This document shows, piece by piece, positions 11,417 through 47,619 of a DNA stretch of 64,000 bases; within the stretch, counting starts at the first letter, position 1, and the number at the start of each line of letters is the position of its first letter. The position numbers were made by a program, and so were the translations under genes. The notes below the pieces were generated by a model. That model ran no database searches. It saw only the letters and a program-made list of their open reading frames with translations, and was not told the DNA's origin. This stretch comes from Nitrospirota bacterium (lineage in GTDB: Bacteria > Nitrospirota > UBA9217), in NCBI GenBank assembly GCA_963751455.1, contig CAVVUN010000015.1, positions 1,280,001 to 1,344,000 on the forward strand, given 5' to 3'.

Positions 11417-11572
11417 GTGCCGATGCAGCTTCCGAAAGAAATCTCCGAACTGATCGAACGCTTTGACCGGAACATCGAAGACTACAAGTCCGGAAAGTAC
11501 AATGAGATGCGGCTCCGGCAGGAATTTCTCAATCCGTTCTTCGAAACGCTCGGTTGGGACATGAACAACCGG
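11417..11572 (+). pseudogene. N-terminal remnant of a type IIG/HsdR_N-like restriction-modification protein, cut by a transposon
   Basis: LIERFDRNIEDYKSGKYNEMRLRQEFLNPFFETLGWD is a typical REase-MTase fusion start; stops at the TIR at 11573. Confidence 0.75.
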
Positions 11573-11598
11573 GAACCTTTAGGGTCAAGTCTTTTTCG

Positions 11599-11627
11599 TT
11601 GCATTTCATTCTGATTTCTGCTACAGT
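11599..11627 (+). promoter_or_regulatory. Putative sigma70 promoter for a leaderless transposase mRNA
   Basis: TTGCAT-17bp-TACAGT, 6 nt before the ATG; no SD; the -35 lies inside the TIR. Confidence 0.55.
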
Positions 11628-11633
11628 CGCCCC

Positions 11634-12503
11634 ATGGCCCGACCTCTAAGAATAGAATATGCCGGTGCGGTCTATCACGTAACATCCCGTGGCAACGAGA
11701 AAAAGCCCGTATTCAAAAACGACCAGGACCGCGAAAACTTTCTGAACACGGTCCAGCACGTCAACAAGCGGTACAATTGGATCTGTCATGCGTATTGCCT
11801 CATGACAAATCATTACCACCTTCTTATCGAGACCCCGGAAGGCAATCTTTCTCTCGGTATGCGCCAATTGAACGGCGTCTATACGCAACTTTTCAACAAG
11901 TATCACGGCAGGTCCGGGCATTTATTCCAGGGCCGGTATAAGGCTATCTTGATCCAGAAAGACAGTCATCTCCTTGAGGTCTGCCGATATGTGGTTCTAA
12001 ATCCGGTAAGAGCAAGGATTGTCGAAGCGCCGGAAGACTGGAAGTGGTCCAGTTACCTTGCGACGGCGGGTAAGGCAGAACCTCATCCCTGCCTCACAAA
12101 GGACTGGGTGCTCGGTCAATTCAGCAGAAAACGAGATAAGGCGGAAAAAGAGTATCGCCAGTTCGTTCAGTGGGGTATCGGAAAGAAGACGATCTGGACG
12201 GAAGTGCGAGGCCAAGCGCTTTTAGGTGAGGACGATTTTGTAGATAAACTTACGGATTATCTCAAAAAGCACAAGGACATTCCCGAAATTCCCCGGAGTC
12301 AGCGATATTCGACTCGACCGTCGCTTGCCGTTTTGCTGCCCGACTCAGTCATGAACAATCATCGCAAACTGATGAAAAAGGTGTCTGAGGCCGTGGAAAA
12401 ATACGGTTATCATCAGAGTGAACTAGCCCGTCATGTGGCTGTCCACTACTCGACGATCAGCCGCTGGCTTCGTGAATACGAAAATGCAACGAAAAAGACT
12501 TGA
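11634..12503 (+). CDS. Y1/HUH transposase (RAYT-like) with C-terminal HTH
   Basis: YHVTSRGN, AYCLMTNHYHLL (HUH), LFQGRYK, YVVLNPVRA, WSSY; HTH QSELARHVAVHYSTISR. Confidence 0.93.
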   Translation: MARPLRIEYAGAVYHVTSRGNEKKPVFKNDQDRENFLNTVQHVNKRYNWICHAYCLMTNHYHLLIETPEGNLSLGMRQLNGVYTQLFNKYHGRSGHLFQGRYKAILIQKDSHLLEVCRYVVLNPVRARIVEAPEDWKWSSYLATAGKAEPHPCLTKDWVLGQFSRKRDKAEKEYRQFVQWGIGKKTIWTEVRGQALLGEDDFVDKLTDYLKKHKDIPEIPRSQRYSTRPSLAVLLPDSVMNNHRKLMKKVSEAVEKYGYHQSELARHVAVHYSTISRWLREYENATKKT

Positions 12504-12552
12504 CCCTAAAGGTTCTCTTGACCCTAAAGGTTCTCTAAAGGTTCTAAAGGTT
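12499..12552 (+). repeat. Stuttered element-end repeats
   Basis: CTTGACCCTAAAGGTTCT x2, then CTAAAGGTT x2. Confidence 0.9.
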
Positions 12553-12656
12553 TTCACAACGAGCGATTGCCGACCACCTGGGTGTGCACTTCACGTACGT
12601 GAGTAGAATTTTACGGAATCGAAGGGAAAGGTAAACAGTATAGACCTGTATAACCC
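12553..12656 (+). pseudogene. 3' remnant of a type 2 RAYT-like element
   Basis: Encodes QRAIADHLGVHFTYVSRIL...R*, followed by AACAGTATAGACCTG, matching the type 2 right end. Confidence 0.8.
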
Positions 12657-13182
12657 TGTGAAGTTCCAAGACCATCGGCGGGGGACCGCACACGGATTTC
12701 GCCGAACACCCGTCACCCATTGCGCAGCCCCCCACTCCTGGTCTATTTACTATAACAAGGATTTCCAATTCATGAATAAAGTGTTTATGAGCTGTGCATT
12801 TGCAATGCGAGCCGCGGGAGCCATGCGACGGTCTTGCCTTTTCTCAAGAGCATTGCCGGCTGCATTCCTGTTGTCGCACGTCCGAGCACGCTGAAATTCT
12901 CCGGCCCCCAATTATATCTGGGAATGTAGAACGGATTTTCCGTATCGGCTTGCAGACCGGAAAGACCATTGGCGAGCAATGAATCGGTGTTGACTTCGAA
13001 TTTCCAGATGGGATAGGATGTTGCGGTACTCGTCGGCAGAGTACTGAGGTTTAACAGTGCCTGGAGCGCCCTAAAATCATAATCCTGATTCCCTTGGACG
13101 GCTGAGGGTCAAATCTCATTTGTCAACAATGAGAGCCGGCCGATCAGCCCTGAGTTAGAGGCTTTTGGGGTCGTTTTTTTAC

Positions 13183-13448: not shown

Positions 13449-13730
13449 ATGACGAAAACGATAACCGCAACCGAGGCTGTTCGGAAGTTTTCCGAGATAC
13501 TCAATTCCATAAAATACACGGGGAATGACTATACGATCATGCGGGGAGGCAAGCCGGTTGCGACGATCCGTCCGGCGGAAACCCACGCAAAGGAATTGAC
13601 CCTGGGCGATCTGCCGGGATTGGTGCGATCGCTTCCCGCGCTCGGCGATGAAGCGGAACGATTCAAAAAAGACATCAGGGAAGCCCGTAAGCATCAGCCC
13701 CATTTGCCGGAGAAAGACAAATGGGCGTAA
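13449..13730 (+). CDS. Phd/YefM-family antitoxin
   Basis: ITATEAVRKFSEILNSI...IMRGGKPVATI; overlaps the toxin. Confidence 0.88.
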   Translation: MTKTITATEAVRKFSEILNSIKYTGNDYTIMRGGKPVATIRPAETHAKELTLGDLPGLVRSLPALGDEAERFKKDIREARKHQPHLPEKDKWA

Positions 13731-14128
13731 TATTCGACACGAGCGTCCTGATCTCCCTTGAGCGCGGTTCGCACGGACTTGAGAGGCTCGCCTCAGGCAG
13801 GGAAAACGAGGCCTTCGGTATCAGCGTTGTCGCTGTTTCCGAGCTCTTGCATGGCGTTCATCGTGCGGACTCAGAGAAAAGGCGCCTCACGAGGGGAGCG
13901 TTCGTCGAAAAGATTATACAGACCTTCCCGCTCTATTCGTTTGACTTGAACGCAGCGAGAATCTATGCAAAACTTTGGGCCAATCTCGCAAAAAAGGGAG
14001 TGACCATAGGCGCTCACGACCTTATGATCGCTTCAACGGCAATTGCCCTCGGTTTCTCCGTGGTTACTACTGATGTGCGCGACTATGGCAAGGTTAAGGA
14101 AGTGACTGTCGAAAAGTTCCTCGTATGA
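13721..14128 (+). CDS. vapC: VapC/PIN-domain toxin
   Basis: IFDTSVLI, SELLHG, HDLMIASTA, VVTTD. Confidence 0.9.
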   Translation: MGVIFDTSVLISLERGSHGLERLASGRENEAFGISVVAVSELLHGVHRADSEKRRLTRGAFVEKIIQTFPLYSFDLNAARIYAKLWANLAKKGVTIGAHDLMIASTAIALGFSVVTTDVRDYGKVKEVTVEKFLV

Positions 14129-14360: not shown

Positions 14361-14388
14361 CGACAATATCTTTGCTTTTACCATTCGT

Positions 14389-14464
14389 CCAAAGTTTCTT
14401 TTTCATAATAAAGCCCGACGCCCTATCCAGCCCGCCCCTTCGCTGTTTTTGATTGAAACTTAAT
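14389..14464 (+). repeat. 76-bp direct repeat, copy 1
   Basis: Identical to 17573-17648. Confidence 0.9.
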
Positions 14465-14467
14465 TTG

Positions 14468-15415
14468 AACTTCTTAGGGTCAGGTCCATACTGTTGGACT
14501 TTTGTTTAAACTTCTGTTAAACTCCCCTTTATGGCTCGTCCATTACGCATAGAATACTCCGGTGCAGTTTATCACATCACCAACCGGGGCAACGATAAAA
14601 AAGCCGTATTCAAAGATGACCAGGACCGAGAGATATTTCTCAAAATCCTTGCCTTCGTCAACAAACGCTACCACTGGCTTTGTCACGCCTACTGTCTCAT
14701 GGACAATCATTACCACCTCATGATAGAAACGCCGGATGGAAACCTTTCCCTCGGCATGAGGCAGCTAAACGGTGTTTATACTCAGGCGCGGAACAAACGC
14801 CACAACAAGACCGGGCACCTTTTCCAGGGCAGGTACAAGGCCATCCTTATTCAAAAGGACACTCATCTTCTTGAAGTCTGCCGCTATGTGGTCCTTAATC
14901 CGGTCCGCGCTGGGATGGTCGAAAAGCCCGAAGACTGGAAATGGTCCAGCTACCGGGCCACAGGTGGGAAGGAAACAGCTCATCCCTGTCTCACAACGGA
15001 CTGGATACTAGGACAGTTCAGCCGAACGAGGGCCAAGGCAGAGAAAGAATATCGCCAATTTGTGAAATGGGGGATCGGCAAGGAAACCATCTGGAAGGAG
15101 GTCAAGGGCCAAGCCCTTCTCGGCGAAGATGACTTTGTTGACAGCCTTGCCGATCATCTCGGAAGGCATAAAGATATTCCCGAGATCCCAAAGAGCCAGC
15201 GCTACGCCAACAGGCCGGCACTTGAAAAAATATTCACTCAGAGTATACTGGACAACAAACTTACGCGGGACAGAAAAATTGCCGAGGCTGTCGAGAAGTA
15301 CGGATACACTCAGCGTTCAATTGCTGATCACCTCAGCGTGCACTCCACATACGTGAGCAGAATTCTGTGCGGACACTACAAAAGGTAAACAGTATGGACC
15401 TGACCCTAAGAAGTT
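14468..15415 (+). mobile_element. TIR-bounded Y1/HUH (RAYT-like) element, type 2 copy a
   Basis: Perfect 28-bp IR AACTTCTTAGGGTCAGGTCCATACTGTT at 14468-14495 and 15388-15415. Confidence 0.9.
14531..15388 (+). CDS. Y1/HUH transposase (RAYT-like), type 2
   Basis: Same motifs as 11634-12503 (MDNHYHL, LNPVRAG) with a diverged C-terminal HTH; TGGACT-17-TAAACT 7 nt upstream of the ATG. Confidence 0.93.
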   Translation: MARPLRIEYSGAVYHITNRGNDKKAVFKDDQDREIFLKILAFVNKRYHWLCHAYCLMDNHYHLMIETPDGNLSLGMRQLNGVYTQARNKRHNKTGHLFQGRYKAILIQKDTHLLEVCRYVVLNPVRAGMVEKPEDWKWSSYRATGGKETAHPCLTTDWILGQFSRTRAKAEKEYRQFVKWGIGKETIWKEVKGQALLGEDDFVDSLADHLGRHKDIPEIPKSQRYANRPALEKIFTQSILDNKLTRDRKIAEAVEKYGYTQRSIADHLSVHSTYVSRILCGHYKR

Positions 15416-15735: not shown

Positions 15736-15849
15736 GCTTATGATACTATAAACAGCCAAAGCTTAGAATAGCATAAACCGGCTTATTCTATCATAAACTT
15801 GTTTGTCATATCATAAGCCGGTTTCCGAATAGAGATTAACTGGTTAACC
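15736..15849 (+). promoter_or_regulatory. Phased palindrome array ending in GTTAACC (attI-like)
   Basis: Units GCTTATGATACTATAAAC, GCTTAGAATAGCATAAAC, GCTTATTCTATCATAAAC and GTTTGTCATATCATAAGC (last three at 20-bp period); GTTAACC at 15843. Confidence 0.6.
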
Positions 15850-17015: not shown

Positions 17016-17150
17016 ACTTTATTCTTCAGATAGAAACAGTACGGGCGTTCCAGTACAAAATTTTCTGTCTTCTCGTGTCCGGCGCTATTGATTTTTTATG
17101 GCGAAATCTTACTGACATATGTTCCAATAGCATTATTGGAGGTTATGTAC

Positions 17151-17354
17151 ATGGCGCACCTCAAAGAAAAAGTTATCGAACTTATCAAATCTCTTCCCGA
17201 AGACGCGACCCTGGAAGATATTCACTATCATCTTTACGTTCGGGAAAAAGTTGAGCATGGCCTAAAAGCAATAGACGAAGGCCGCATTGTCTCACAGGAA
17301 GAAGCTGAAAAAAGGGTTGCGGAATGGTTAAAGTCAAGCCCTCGCGGTGCCTGA
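17151..17354 (+). CDS. Antitoxin of a RelE/ParE-type TA pair
   Basis: KEKVIELIKSLPEDATLEDIHYHLYVREKVEHGL..IDEGRIVSQEE; GGAGG RBS. Confidence 0.8.
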   Translation: MAHLKEKVIELIKSLPEDATLEDIHYHLYVREKVEHGLKAIDEGRIVSQEEAEKRVAEWLKSSPRGA

Positions 17355-17455
17355 ACAACGCGCAAAACGAATCGTTCAGCGTATACAAAAAAATCTTTAG
17401 CAATATACTCAAAGATGCTGTGAAGATCGTTCAGCGCTGGTTCTGTCCAGATGAC
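17324..17455. pseudogene. RelE/ParE toxin inactivated by an internal inversion
   Basis: MVKV on +, then IWTEPALNDLHSIFEYIAKD on the - strand; re-inverting 17333-17455 gives a continuous ParE N-terminus. Confidence 0.75.
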
Positions 17456-17572
17456 CAGGTTCGTCATCAGATCGACATTGTATTTGAAATAAACCTTCGC
17501 TTCGATACGAATGTCAGTACGCTTGTCGTGGACCGCAAATCGTGGGAAAGCCGCCTTTTTTCAGTGCTTCCG

Positions 17573-17648
17573 CCAAAGTTTCTTTTTCATAATAAAGCCC
17601 GACGCCCTATCCAGCCCGCCCCTTCGCTGTTTTTGATTGAAACTTAAT
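17573..17648 (+). repeat. 76-bp direct repeat, copy 2
   Basis: Identical to 14389-14464. Confidence 0.9.
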
Positions 17649-17729
17649 CCGATTTAATCGATAATATACCGATACCATGAAACGTGATCTGGAACACTCC
17701 CCGGTTTATATTTCACAAAGAGACAAACG

Positions 17730-18149
17730 ATGAGCAACCTGGACGTTCGTTGGAAACAACGCTTCAATCATTATCAAAAAGCGCTCCGGCAGCTTGCAGG
17801 ATCCGTGGAACTGGCGAGGCAGCTTCCCTTGTCAGAGCTTGAGAAACTAGGTCTCATTAAGGCCTTTGAATTCACGCATGAGCTGGCATGGAATGTGATG
17901 AAGGATTATTTTGAATACCAGGGCACGACCTCAATCATGGGTTCCCGCGACGCATCACGTGAAGCATTTCAAAAAGGACTTGTTGCTGACGGTGAAGGGT
18001 GGATGGAGATGCTCCAGAGCAGGAACCAGACGTCGCATACCTATAACCAAAATGTGGCAGACGAAATTGCCGGGAAAGTGACGACGCTGTATTGCAAGCT
18101 GTTCCTTGAGTTGGAAAAAAGTCTTTTGAAGATGAAAGACAGCGAGTGA
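17730..18149 (+). CDS. HEPN/HI0074-family nucleotidyltransferase substrate-binding protein (type VII TA toxin-like)
   Basis: RWKQRF, FEFTHELAW, and RNQTSHTY (Rx4H). Confidence 0.9.
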   Translation: MSNLDVRWKQRFNHYQKALRQLAGSVELARQLPLSELEKLGLIKAFEFTHELAWNVMKDYFEYQGTTSIMGSRDASREAFQKGLVADGEGWMEMLQSRNQTSHTYNQNVADEIAGKVTTLYCKLFLELEKSLLKMKDSE

Positions 18150-18493
18150 CGGTGCTGCCGATGAAATATGGCCTGAATGACAATATAATCGTAAAGATCA
18201 ACTCAATCTTTTCAAGATGGCCCGGTGTCGAGCAGGTCATTCTGTACGGATCACGCGCCAAGGGAAATTATCGTGACGGCTCGGACATAGACCTTACGAT
18301 AGTCGGTGAAACTGTAACGCAATCGGACATGCTGAAGATTGCAAACGAACTCGATGATTTGCTGTTGCCGTATAAAATCGATCTGTCACTGATGCGTCAA
18401 ATTGAGGATAAAGCGGTCATTGAGCACATAAAGCGGGTTGGTGTGGTTCTTTATGAAAGGGCATCGTATGCGCCATCGAGGACTGTTGAATGA
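18146..18493 (+). CDS. Minimal nucleotidyltransferase (MNT) antitoxin
   Basis: LYGSRAKG...SDIDL; LPYKIDL. Confidence 0.9.
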   Translation: MTVLPMKYGLNDNIIVKINSIFSRWPGVEQVILYGSRAKGNYRDGSDIDLTIVGETVTQSDMLKIANELDDLLLPYKIDLSLMRQIEDKAVIEHIKRVGVVLYERASYAPSRTVE

Positions 18494-42287: not shown

Positions 42288-42539
42288 ATGCAATTAACTC
42301 ATGAAGCAAAAACATCGCTTGAGCGAGAATATGCCCTTTGCTCAAGCGCCATCGCCTTCTATAAAAAGTCGCTCAAAGAGTTCGAGCGAAAATACAGACT
42401 TACGACTAGAATGTTTCTAAAGCGCTTTGAAGCCGGTGAAATCGGTGATGATAGCGATTACTTTGATTGGTATGCCTTTTCACGGCTTCTTGCTCAGTGG
42501 CAGAAAACTCAATCGGCTCTTCGTACAGCGATCCGATGA
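42288..42539 (+). CDS. Antitoxin (TumA-like), TA cassette in reverse orientation
   Basis: LKEFERKY...FLKRFEAGEIGDDSDYFDW; upstream TTGACT-17-TATAAA promoter-like sequence. Confidence 0.75.
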   Translation: MQLTHEAKTSLEREYALCSSAIAFYKKSLKEFERKYRLTTRMFLKRFEAGEIGDDSDYFDWYAFSRLLAQWQKTQSALRTAIR

Positions 42540-42922
42540 TTAAGCGATATCTCGACAACATCGAAAAAGTTATTGGATCACATCCCGCAGTTCTTTCCTC
42601 TACGCTTCAAAAACAAATCGGACCAGACAGCAAAACGATATACCTCAAAGGCGCAATTACCTTCGTTGACCTATCGGTTCTTGAATTATCTGTATTTGCC
42701 ATTTCACTCTCTAGCAGAGTTGTGCCGGAGAAATATCGATTTCAATACATGGACAAGAAGAGCCAAATTGTTTTCCGCTACGATAATGCCCCTCATCACA
42801 AGGAACTATCAACTTTCCCTCATCATAAGCATCTGACTGATAAAGTAATTCCTTCCGAAATGCCTACACTTGCCGATATTCTTGACGAGATCAGCACATT
42901 CATAATTGAGGAAATAAGCTAA
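42536..42922 (+). CDS. DUF6516/TumE-family toxin
   Basis: YRFQY...FRYDNAPHH...FPHHKH; ATGA overlap with the antitoxin. Confidence 0.8.
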   Translation: MIKRYLDNIEKVIGSHPAVLSSTLQKQIGPDSKTIYLKGAITFVDLSVLELSVFAISLSSRVVPEKYRFQYMDKKSQIVFRYDNAPHHKELSTFPHHKHLTDKVIPSEMPTLADILDEISTFIIEEIS

Positions 42923-42958: not shown

Positions 42959-43413
42959 AGGGTCAGGTCCATACTCTTTACCTTTTGTAGTGTCCGCACA
43001 GAATTCTGCTCACGTATGTGGAGTGCACGCCGAGGTGATCAGCAATTGAACGCTGAGTGTATCCGTACTTCTCGACAGCCTCGGCAATTTTTCTGTCCCG
43101 CTTAGGTTTGTTGTCCAGTATACTCTGAGTGAATATTTTTTCAAGTGTTGGTCTGTTGGCGTAACGCTGGCTCTTTGGGATCTCGGGAATATCTTTATGC
43201 CTTCTGAGATGATCGGCCAGGCTGTCAACAAAATCATCTTCGCCGAGAAGGGCCTGGCCCTTAACCTCATTCCAGATGGTTTCCTTGCCGATCCCCCATT
43301 TCACAAATTGGCGATATTCTTTCTCTGCCTTGCCTCTTGTTCGGCTGAATTGTCCGAGTACCCAGTCTGTGGTAAGACAAGGGTGGGCCGGCTCTTTCCC
43401 CCCTGTGGCCCGG
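42959..43413 (-). pseudogene. 3' half of type 2 RAYT-like element, copy b
   Basis: Near-identical to the 3' half of 14531-15388; right end AGGGTCAGGTCCATAC. Confidence 0.9.
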
Positions 43414-44355
43414 GAACATTAGGGTCAAGTCTTTTTCGTTGCATTTTCGTATTCACGAAGCCAGCGGCTGATTGTAGAATAGTGGACAGCCACATGGCGG
43501 GCTAGTTCACTCTGATGATAACCGTATTTTTCCACGGCCTCGGACACCTTTTTCATCAGTTTGCGATGATTGTTCATGACTGAGTCGGGCAGCAAAACGG
43601 CAAGCGACGGTCGAGTCGAATATCGCTGACTCCGGGGAATTTCGGGAATGTCCTTGTGTTTTTTGAGATAATCTGTAAGTTTATCTACGAAATCGTCCTC
43701 ACCTAAGAGCGCTTGGCCTCGCACTTCCGTCCAGATCGTCTTCTTCCCGATCCCCCACTGAACGAACTGGCGATACTCTTTTTCCGCCTTATCTCGTTTT
43801 CTGCTGAATTGACCAAGCACCCAATCCGTTGCGAGGCAGGGATGAGATTCAGCCTTACCCGCCGTCGCAAGGTAACTGGACCACTTCCAGTCTTCCGGCG
43901 CTTCGACCATCCTTGCTCTTACCGGATTTAGAACCACATATCGGCAGACCTCAAGGAGATGACTGTCTTTCTGGATCAGGATAGCCTTATACCGGCCCTG
44001 GAATAAATGCCCGGACCTGCCGTGATACTTGTTGAAAAGTTGCGTATACACGCTGTTCAATTGGCGCATGCCTAGGGAAAGATTGCCCTCCGGGGTCTCG
44101 ATAAGAAGGTGGTAATGATTTGTCATGAGGCAATACGCATGACAGATCCAATTGTACCGCTTGTTGACGTGCTGGACCGTGTTCAGGAAGTTTTCGCGGT
44201 CCTGGTCGTTTTTGAATACGGGCTTCTTCTCATTGCCACGAGATGTTACGTGATAGACCGCACCGGCATATTCTATTCTTAGAGGTCGGGCCATGGGGCG
44301 ACTGTAGCAGAAATCAGAATAAACTGCAACGAAAAAGACTTGACCCTAAAGATTC
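43414..44355 (-). mobile_element. TIR-bounded type 1 RAYT-like element, copy b
   Basis: Ends GAACATTAGGGTCAAGTCTTTTTCGTTGCA / TGCAACGAAAAAGACTTGACCCTAAAGATTC. Confidence 0.9.
43425..44294 (-). CDS. Y1/HUH transposase type 1, copy b
   Basis: Five amino-acid differences from 11634-12503 by eye. Confidence 0.93.
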   Translation of the reverse strand: MARPLRIEYAGAVYHVTSRGNEKKPVFKNDQDRENFLNTVQHVNKRYNWICHAYCLMTNHYHLLIETPEGNLSLGMRQLNSVYTQLFNKYHGRSGHLFQGRYKAILIQKDSHLLEVCRYVVLNPVRARMVEAPEDWKWSSYLATAGKAESHPCLATDWVLGQFSRKRDKAEKEYRQFVQWGIGKKTIWTEVRGQALLGEDDFVDKLTDYLKKHKDIPEIPRSQRYSTRPSLAVLLPDSVMNNHRKLMKKVSEAVEKYGYHQSELARHVAVHYSTISRWLREYENATKKT

Positions 44356-44727
44356 CTCTTATACCGGCCCTGGAATAAATGCCCGGACCTTCCGTGATAC
44401 TTGTTGAAAAGTTGCGTATAGACGCTGTTCAATTGGCGCATACCGAGAGAAAGATTGCCTTCCGGGGTCTCGATAAGAAGATGGTAATGGTTTGTCATGA
44501 GGCAATACGCATGACAGATCCAATTGTACCGCTTGTTGACGTGCTGGACCGTGTTCAGGAAGTTTTCGCGGTCCTGGTCGTTTTTGAATACGGGCTTTTT
44601 CTCGTTGCCACGGGATGTTACGTGATAGACCGCACCGGCATATTCTATTCTTAGAGGTCGGGCCATGGGGCGACTGTAGCAGAAATCAGAATGAAATGCA
44701 ACGAAAAAGACTTGACCCTAAAGATTC
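44356..44727 (-). pseudogene. Truncated type 1 element, copy c
   Basis: Left end plus first 103 codons, cut at FQGRYK by the left end of copy b. Confidence 0.9.
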
Positions 44728-44729
44728 TC

Positions 44730-44860
44730 CTTCTATGCGTAATGGACGAGCCATAAAGGGGAGTTTAGCAGAAGTTTAAACAAAAGTCCAACAGTATGGA
44801 CCTGACCCTAAGTAGTTCTCGTTCTAAGTAGTTCCTAAGTAGTTCTGACCCTAAGTAGTT
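44730..44860 (-). mobile_element. 5' end of type 2 copy b plus stuttered end repeats
   Basis: Encodes MARPLRIE; carries the type 2 left end; CTAAGTAGTT x4, twice preceded by CTGACC. Confidence 0.88.
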
Positions 44861-45681
44861 CTACCATGAATATATTCGAAGTCAGTCTTTTTTAGGTCTT
44901 CTCTCTTCGCGTACTTATAGTAAAATTTCAATATAGAAGGTTCATCATACAGCATTGTGACTTGACCATTTGAATTCATCAGAAATGGTTTTAGCCAAAA
45001 TGGTCTGGACGGATTTTGCTTTTTTATGAATGTATTTAGTTGCGATTGAGGGCTATGTGGAAATAATTTACAAAAAGTCATCTGCATTATAAGACGCTGA
45101 TGCTCCTTGTCATATTTCTCGTATTTGTTTTTCTCCTCAATCGTGGTGAAAAAATCGGAAATCACTTTTCTATCTTTATTGGGGTAAATATATGTGGAGT
45201 ACTCTGACTCATTTTCGACGATAAAGGATATACAGATATTATTTTCTCTATCCTCCTTGGTGCCATAATTCCATGACGAAATAAGATCGAAAAAATTCCT
45301 CGCATATTCGAGAGACGCAAAAGCGCATCCGACGACATTTAGCATGTTTGCCTCTGATTCGGCAGGAGTTGCGAAAGCCATCCCTTTCCATTCAGATGGA
45401 TCATACGTAAAATTCGGCATAGGCTGAACATATATGGATGTGTATTCAAATACAGCCCTTTCAAGGAATTGTTGAAATAGGAATAATGCAACGGCAAGTG
45501 ATAACGATATGTACCATGTAGGAATTGAAATGATGCTTGTAGCAATGCCCACTGCTGTCAATATCCGTATCGACCATTTAATTGGTCTCTCATATTGTTC
45601 GTGAACAACTAATTTGGGTATCCCTTTACGGAATCTTATATCTACAAGGCTTCTGAGAGCTACTTTCCACTTTCCTTTCAT
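44851..45681 (-). CDS. Hypothetical membrane protein (AT-rich, cassette-like)
   Basis: Two N-terminal TM helices; AGGAG RBS; stop codon falls inside the element-end stutter. Confidence 0.75.
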   Translation of the reverse strand: MKGKWKVALRSLVDIRFRKGIPKLVVHEQYERPIKWSIRILTAVGIATSIISIPTWYISLSLAVALFLFQQFLERAVFEYTSIYVQPMPNFTYDPSEWKGMAFATPAESEANMLNVVGCAFASLEYARNFFDLISSWNYGTKEDRENNICISFIVENESEYSTYIYPNKDRKVISDFFTTIEEKNKYEKYDKEHQRLIMQMTFCKLFPHSPQSQLNTFIKKQNPSRPFWLKPFLMNSNGQVTMLYDEPSILKFYYKYAKREDLKKTDFEYIHGRTT

Positions 45682-47520: not shown

Positions 47521-47608
47521 GGTTAACAAGTTATTGACTATAAGCAAATGGTTTATGTTAGCATAAACAAGTTTATGATAGCATAAACCGGTTAATGGTA
47601 TCATAAAC
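47521..47608 (-). promoter_or_regulatory. Phased palindrome array ending in GTTAACC (attI-like)
   Basis: GTTTATG-N4-CATAAAC-type units at 47551, 47571 and 47591; GGTTAAC at 47521. Confidence 0.65.
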
Positions 47609-47619
47609 TTGTTTGGGTT

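Follow-up and report, generated by a model that had tools for sequence, protein, structure and literature searches.

Same-Orientation Stacking of TIRtron Ends in a Nitrospirota Genome

Introduction

TIRtrons and their transposases, TIRYTs, were introduced by Di Nocera, De Gregorio, and Rocco in 2013 (PMC3733652). The enzymes correspond to TnpA-Y1 subclass 2.1 of Quentin et al. 2018 (PMC6006769), which was recorded in 14.9% of the species sampled there and equals RAYT group 1 of PMC5581495, the group with the top duplication rate among true RAYTs. According to the sections of these three papers drawn on here, a RAYT-like HUH/tyrosine gene whose product has a C-terminal helix-turn-helix (HTH) lies between terminal inverted repeats with a GGGGWSAS-like core start; REP hairpins are absent, the repeats also occur alone and grouped, and a genome holds several divergent paralogues. 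Apart from the core motif, to which its repeats come close, the locus described below shares these features.

In the sections of PMC3333891 and PMC8266576 used here, activity is demonstrated for TnpA-REP and IS608-type enzymes alone. TnpA-REP cleaves with low specificity near a bound REP, and a sequence of nick, extension, and rejoining has been proposed to add tandem units during BIME amplification (PMC3333891, Fig. 7B); formation of a 5'-phosphotyrosine and attack by a 3'-OH were confirmed in PMC8266576. No publication testing the mode of movement of TnpA-Y1 subclass 2.1 was found. In the portions of the TIRtron descriptions covered, we found no nested or end-anchored stacks, variable 8-10 nt tip, flank deletions, or mechanism, and the wider literature searched (figures, supplements, and subscription journals lay outside the search) likewise held no description of TIRtron stacking, variable tips, or flank deletion. 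A word search of the available text of the founding paper (PMC3733652) returned no occurrence of "nested," "truncated," or "target site duplication."

Here, we analyzed a 64,000-nucleotide stretch of a Nitrospirota genome (the window; G000:C15:1280001-1344000, where G000 is the label of the source genome), in which an initial annotation had noticed a stack of related transposase genes. The element belongs to a known family; its stacking, quantified here and undescribed in the literature searched, makes the mechanism of the family directly testable.

Results

The stacked elements are TIRtrons, a named but functionally untested kind of about 930 bp with a RAYT-like HUH transposase, a C-terminal HTH, and terminal inverted repeats. 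The 289-aa type 1 protein contains a Y1_Tnp domain with the motifs NHYH, HLFQGRY, and YVVLNP, and residues N59, H60, Y61, H62, Y119, N123, and P124 were invariant in 52 aligned sequences. It scored 94.5 bits against the NF047646 profile (cut-off 80) and, at its C-terminus, 25.5 bits against HTH_28 (cut-off 25), where the predicted model has three helices at 243-287; the type 2 protein gave no HTH match at E<=0.001. An alignment-based model of the type 1 protein reached a pLDDT of 86.6 (35 from the single sequence). The nearest structure to this model was TnpA-REP 4ER8 (E 2e-7), followed by IS608 and ISDra2, and a sequence search of solved structures recovered 4ER8 at just E=0.12. The predicted fold and the motifs fit HUH Y1 chemistry, in which a nick would leave a 5'-phosphotyrosine and a 3'-OH would carry out strand transfer. 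The closest named relatives were from Nitrospirota, and a match at 1e-40 was present in 43 of the 64 genomes of the order.

The gene lies between inverted repeats of 34 bp (100% identity) in the type 1 copy at 11.6 kb, 36 bp (89%) in the type 1 copy of the stack, and 38 bp (92%) in the type 2 copy at 14.5 kb. The GGGGWSAS motif was matched at 7/8 positions in the type 2 repeat and 6/8 in the type 1 repeat, with other same-type ends in the genome reaching 8/8. Unlike the TIRtrons in the published sections cited above, the copies here are 96-98% identical and clearly mobile, and their core starts with AGGG, not GGGG. REP-type hairpins were not detected at the gene: all five end sequences folded no better than shuffles (z -1.05 to +1.32), and this test rejected a terminal hairpin or REP-like structure. 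Membership in the REPtrons (RAYT groups 2/3) was discarded because the gene is not accompanied by GTAG-tagged stem-loop REPs, and membership in IS200/IS605 because of a Y---NP rather than Y---Q motif, a length of 289 aa rather than that of a short core-only TnpA, and the absence of a subterminal hairpin.

The REPtron/TnpA-REP and REP-BIME system nevertheless has the closest fold (PDB 4ER8), and its low-specificity cleavage near a bound site, strand transfer, and nick-extend-rejoin model for adding tandem units, as set out in parts of PMC3333891 and PMC8266576, resemble what is proposed below. In REPtrons, as those parts present them, the gene stays put and GTAG-tagged hairpins spread, whereas here the whole gene-bearing unit moves; the ends show no foldback beyond that of shuffled sequences and no GTAG tag, and the protein has an HTH tail. 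IS200/IS605 elements (IS608, ISDra2) share the Y1 HUH fold and possibly a replication-strand bias. They differ in having subterminal hairpins and Y---Q, in inserting precisely on the 3' side of a fixed 4-5 nt target, and in occurring as near-identical copies; the elements here have inverted repeats and Y---NP, with deletions frequent and no fixed target observed.

The stack was dissected by BLAST against the intact type 1 copy at 11.6 kb and the intact type 2 copy at 14.5 kb. Read on the minus strand, positions 44818-42959 consist of four TIRtron pieces, all in the same orientation: type 2 nt 1-87 (97.7% identity), a 3-nt linker, type 1 nt 1-370 (98.4%), a 2-nt linker, a full type 1 copy (nt 1-937, 96.6%), and type 2 nt 486-940 (93.2%). 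The type 2 5' stub (44731..44818) comprises a 9-nt tip, the left inverted repeat with its core from 44809, the leader, and the first eight codons (MARPLRIE). On its outer side (44819..44861, minus strand), BLAST and coordinate comparison identified a head-to-tail array of partial type 2 left ends, each unit being an end prefix of 2-16 nt. The 3-nt linker (44728..44730) is absent from both parents at that position. The type 1 stub (44358..44727) is anchored at the left and consists of the tip GAATCTTT, the left inverted repeat, and codons 1-103. Beyond the 2-nt linker (44356..44357) stands a complete type 1 TIRtron (43414..44355), whose left tip, GAATCTTT, and shortened right tip, GAACATT, are both variants. 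Its intact 289-aa TIRYT gene (43425..44294) encodes Y1_Tnp at 12-120 with the HUH motif NHYH and the Y motif YVVLNP, and the C-terminal HTH. The last piece (42959..43413) is the type 2 3' half with the right inverted-repeat core, its outer tip unlike that of the intact copy.

This layout agrees with the initial annotation, which had described a type 2 copy broken after MARPLRIE with about 130 codons gone (we found 398 nt, or about 133 codons, missing) and, inside it, a truncated and a complete type 1 copy in one orientation. Register is lost at the joints, which link type 1 nt 1 to type 2 nt 87 and type 1 nt 937 to type 2 nt 486 with 0-3 extra nt. Beyond the stack, at 42288-42922, lies a module of two genes, a TumE-family toxin gene (PF20126) and an 83-aa ORF, which probably form a toxin-antitoxin pair; further such likely pairs occur at 13449-14128 and near 17088-18493.

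We then considered whether the stack is real. The type 1 stub and the adjacent full copy differ at 13 of 362 positions, with 11 silent codons and no amino-acid changes, indicating that they are different alleles, which argues against misassembly. Differences that are silent only imply that the stub is a separately arrived functional allele or that one side was later replaced by recombination, and they rule out the stub as a recent local duplicate or a decayed copy of its neighbor. The full copy was also considered as a simple crossover hybrid of two alleles, and no clean hybrid pattern was evident. The best of 22 public runs contained 9% of the region's words; among the contig pieces listed from four runs (85% threshold) there were relatives only, none spanning the locus, and these were uninformative on the assembly. 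Contigs of relatives continue unbroken over both type 2 breakpoints (43413 and 44731). An assembly artefact, in which repeats of co-occurring strains were stacked into a single contig, could draw on a genome contamination of 5.4% and on the fact that no spanning reads were found for the locus. However, the pieces are distinct alleles with private variants, all three type 1 ends of the stack carry tips that are present on 0/9 other type 1 ends, the contig is 1.7 Mb long, and like architecture occurs in independent assemblies, so that we regard this explanation as very improbable.

Three further copies or remnants were found in the window, all on the plus strand. An intact type 1 copy (11573..12515) has perfect 34-bp inverted repeats; an Eco57I-like gene is cut short by its left tip, with about 50 codons preserved. 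Adjoining its right end (12516..12665) is an array of partial right ends, followed by a 3' remnant in the same orientation. This end had been annotated as abutting a type 2 3' remnant; a same-orientation remnant of about 95 nt does follow after about 50 nt of partial-end repeats, but its identity is no more than 74.5% to type 2, against 79.8% to another relative, and it thus derives from a type 2-like sister subfamily rather than from type 2 itself. The intact type 2 reference copy (14468..15415) has a 285-aa gene and 38-bp inverted repeats. An 81-nt direct repeat (98%) occurs at 14384-14464 and 17568-17648, one copy stopping at the left tip of the intact type 2 element, which suggests an element-linked duplication or deletion. 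Related tandem/palindromic repeats with a 20-nt period lie at 15759-15825, just downstream of the intact type 2 copy, and at 47549-47615, about 2.7 kb from the stack.

To characterize the ends, we collected those linked to genes with 60% or higher identity to type 1, which gave 151 hits and, after removal of flank duplicates, 114 distinct ends; ends missed by the core pattern were left out, the genomes are related, and the loci were picked by protein similarity. A conserved core, AGGGTCA, is bordered on its outer side by about 8-10 nt of loosely conserved tip. Comparison with paralogous unoccupied sites and with self-junctions puts the join 8-13 nt outward of the core, and this is where every incoming end begins; the tip is therefore foreign to the target, and the candidate origin of the tip from the immediate target was rejected. 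Tips are highly variable: 13/13 other-sample ends with an identical 23-nt core had different tips, and two relatives with a common flank (L025 and L107) also differ in their tips. Within this genome the tips were identical in 8/12 type 1 ends, indicating that tips also travel with the element.

Head-to-tail arrays of own-end prefixes were present at 33 of the 111 ends with enough flank. They comprised 61 units, 57 of which end <=10 nt from the core start, and the shuffle control gave arrays at a mean of 0.05 ends and a maximum of 1. In distant phyla, a count made without a shuffle control found arrays at 13/56 ends, these ends coming from the 29 of 58 loci that yielded a repeat pair. No target-site duplication was evident by eye in 37 flank pairs. 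Non-autonomous elements of about 75-90 bp with two type 1-like inverted repeats, some with tip arrays, were also observed (C12:204450, 213392, and 215164; L015, L018, L020, and L022).

Y1-family DNA lay within about 75 nt of the core at 15/108 flanks, and strict abutment (<=25 nt, or via an array) was seen at 13/108. The partners of these 13 ends were self in two cases, allelic in two, a sister subfamily in five, and a family about 35% identical in protein in four; nine are thus cross-subfamily. Outside this genome, cross-subfamily abutment was found at 6/84 ends, with a binomial p of 1e-6 at a background of 0.4%, 2e-4 at 1%, and 7e-3 at 2%; the Y1-family share of this genome is 0.36%. Within it, 5/24 ends abut Y1-family DNA (three cross-subfamily, at two loci), whereas 2/158 ends of other multicopy repeats lay <=75 nt from such DNA (Fisher p 5e-4 for the five ends and 0.018 for the three cross-subfamily ends, with the control total miscounted as 156). 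This control covers this genome alone and leaves out single-copy invaders (IS200, group II intron).

The proposal that type 1 prefers related transposase genes therefore stands in part. Ends abut Y1-family DNA far above chance, and tabulating the insertion sites confirmed the enrichment of family neighbors in this genome, but the behavior is neither exclusive nor special to type 1, as a like pattern was found in other subfamilies and phyla. The preference is only partial, since 95/108 ends overall, and 8/12 of the type 1 ends of this genome, are in unrelated DNA.

The neighboring fragment retains its own outer end in all checkable cases. Distant-family neighbors (Y1_Tnp plus a weak Bac_DnaA_C) keep their own GGGGACGT-type left ends in 3/3 checkable cases, two of them with arrays of their own, and the fourth is cut by a contig end. 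At a gammaproteobacterial locus (L096; G080:C5:2631746-2633432), seven left ends, belonging to six stubs and one full gene, are stacked; no exact match occurs outside this locus in that genome (G080), where two diverged ends lie elsewhere. This stack contains several alleles and body-identical stubs with different tips, and its full gene seemingly lacks a right repeat. Stacked copies in L011 differ by 6 silent and no amino-acid changes, and additional end stacks are present in the genome studied here.

All 11 close-family neighbors are in the same orientation, as are 7/7 close cross-subfamily pairs. GC skew indicated a leading-strand bias at 14/16 loci, three of them with weak skew, and given this bias the 7/7 pairs are unremarkable (p about 0.18). 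The two exceptions are this stack and the stack at C15:787k. Another break after RIE, this time with a different incoming subfamily, lies at C15:787k, and 0/63 relatives show one, so that the pattern is confined to one of 64 genomes and a universal hot spot is rejected; the recurrence may reflect shared history or local preference. Among 10 long junctions, the skew of the breaks toward the retained end was not significant against a uniform distribution (KS p=0.14).

Other mobile elements were found in 2/7 type 1 copies, implying that insertion tolerance there contributes. One is an IS200-like element inserted near codon 17 (C1:505645-506258), and the other is a group II intron (Rfam RF02005) that has a type 1 5' stub on one side and another repeat end on the other, with the gene remainder missing (C3:359909-361800; L231). 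A third subfamily forms a 100% identical tandem at C1:184296-186126, in which a full copy is followed by a copy minus its left end only.

The initial annotation had also proposed that adjacent DNA is deleted, and this was borne out by the 398 nt lost here and by truncated restriction-modification and integron integrase genes elsewhere. Among 37 end pairs, the target could be reconstituted only at this stack, minus 398 nt. A clean two-sided insertion or empty site was seen in 0/37 end pairs, a weak test because 10-14 pairs had homologues on both sides. The Eco57I-like gene at 11420-11572 is cut by the 11.6-kb copy, and its remaining approximately 1000 codons are absent from the assembly. In two relatives (L174 and L175), the Eco57I-like restriction-modification gene is likewise cut by TIRtron ends, and stacks of end stubs replace most of it. 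At C1:554132-556200 (L226), the integron integrase gene runs into a type 1 right-end array and lacks its final codons. The type 1 copy at this site has an in-frame 96-nt internal deletion, and its other flank lies inside a dispersed repeat, which we take to resemble an attC site. Separately, across the loci compared, which include L179 and L180, several other relatives have short or internally deleted Eco57I-like versions with no recognizable end.

Discussion

The junctions follow a common grammar of flank, end-anchored fragment of any length, and new tip, and the short arrays follow it likewise. The partners span self, alleles, sister subfamilies, and the 35%-identical family. We consider it rather probable that the stack arose from several one-ended joins, in each of which a tip would be nicked and transferred to a break near a family inverted repeat with loss of the intervening DNA. 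By Y1/HUH chemistry, the transposase would nick the element at its outer tip, at a putative site and with a putative polarity that would attach the element 5' end to the catalytic tyrosine and expose a 3'-OH on the flank. A host polymerase could extend this 3'-OH, and rejoining to the same end would then yield a prefix array; a 3'-OH made at or near another bound repeat could capture the end and yield a stack. The C-terminal HTH may bind the shared GGGTCA/GGGGACG-type repeats and gather the ends, by analogy with IS26, and if it held ends together in this way the preference would be protein-guided. Two ends acting independently would produce deletions, and either a second one-ended join or, where the alleles are close, host recombination may account for the missing half of the resident copy. 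The partners and junctions seen here would be explained best by proximity to a family end under the guidance of the protein.

As a rival account, the elements could have inserted by both ends in the ordinary way, into hot regions held in common or sites that tolerate insertion, with adjacent deletions and direct-repeat recombination coming later; stacks would survive because landing in another element carries no cost. The elements are concentrated in regions resembling islands, type 1 copies have also received an IS200 and a group II intron, any insertion model leaves the outer end of the resident fragment in place, and leading-strand bias could yield the shared orientation. We nevertheless judge it unlikely: other repeat ends lie near Y1 DNA in just 2/158 cases, no end pair shows a clean two-sided insertion (the weak test above), and the sole colinear case, this stack, is short of 398 nt. 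Moreover, 57/61 array units stop close to the core start, the stack runs against the majority strand, and G080 has seven ends at a single locus.

The initial annotation had suggested homology- or protein-guided targeting or competition between subfamilies. In homology-guided targeting, the incoming strand would pair with related transposase DNA, by host recombination or guide-like pairing, and replace part of it. The uniform orientation of the 11 close-family neighbors and mosaic variant patterns among copies are in keeping with such pairing, but joints that are out of register with 0-3 extra nt and four partners only about 35% identical in protein, two of them in opposite orientation, make it quite improbable. 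Selected competition, with type 1 adapted to knock out type 2 transposase genes, would account for the broken type 2 or type 2-like neighbor at 2/6 type 1 loci. It is hardly to be expected, however, where 4/13 stacks are self or allelic, type 2-like ends also stack with other subfamilies, and an intact type 2 copy survives 2 kb from a type 1 copy, and we give it very little probability.

If one-ended joining is correct, the junctions predict a nick 8-10 nt outside the core, ends acting singly, and resident repeats attracting new ends. IS26 uses a DDE enzyme and joins like ends with precision, and IS91 is a Y2 rolling-circle element without inverted repeats; unlike in both, the tips here join variable internal positions across subfamilies. 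Partial parallels are the targeted conservative mode of IS26, with its transposase-driven preference for a resident copy via a repeat-binding HTH (PMC8477213), and the one-ended HUH events reported for IS91 (PMC13181058).

A wider proposition, which we put forward tentatively as possible rather than probable, is that TIRtrons form a prokaryotic HUH class that moves one end at a time. Their repeats would serve as nick-primed origins, resident family repeats, down to those of 35% identical subfamilies, would be protein-recognized landing pads, and the 8-10 nt tip would be rewritten in joining. A single reaction could then account for products that range from 2-nt stutters and 30-nt arrays to stacks of whole genes and the deletion of kilobases of defence and integron genes. 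Were this true, a common family would have a new mode of transposition and self-targeting, and its activity would give rise to deletions in defence and integron genes. TIRtrons would also be an IS-like missing link to REP/BIME array formation and a model for the origin of those tandem arrays.

Other repeats accompany TIRYT genes or share the window with them. A family of short repeats, tandem and inverted, has TCTGCG..AATC as its unit, is dispersed over 24830-61566, and is unrelated to the TIRtron ends. At C15:211886-219138, there are three to four degenerate TIRYT genes with no right ends; related palindromic repeats, each about 80-100 bp long, repeatedly interrupt them at almost identical codon positions (after ILIQKD).
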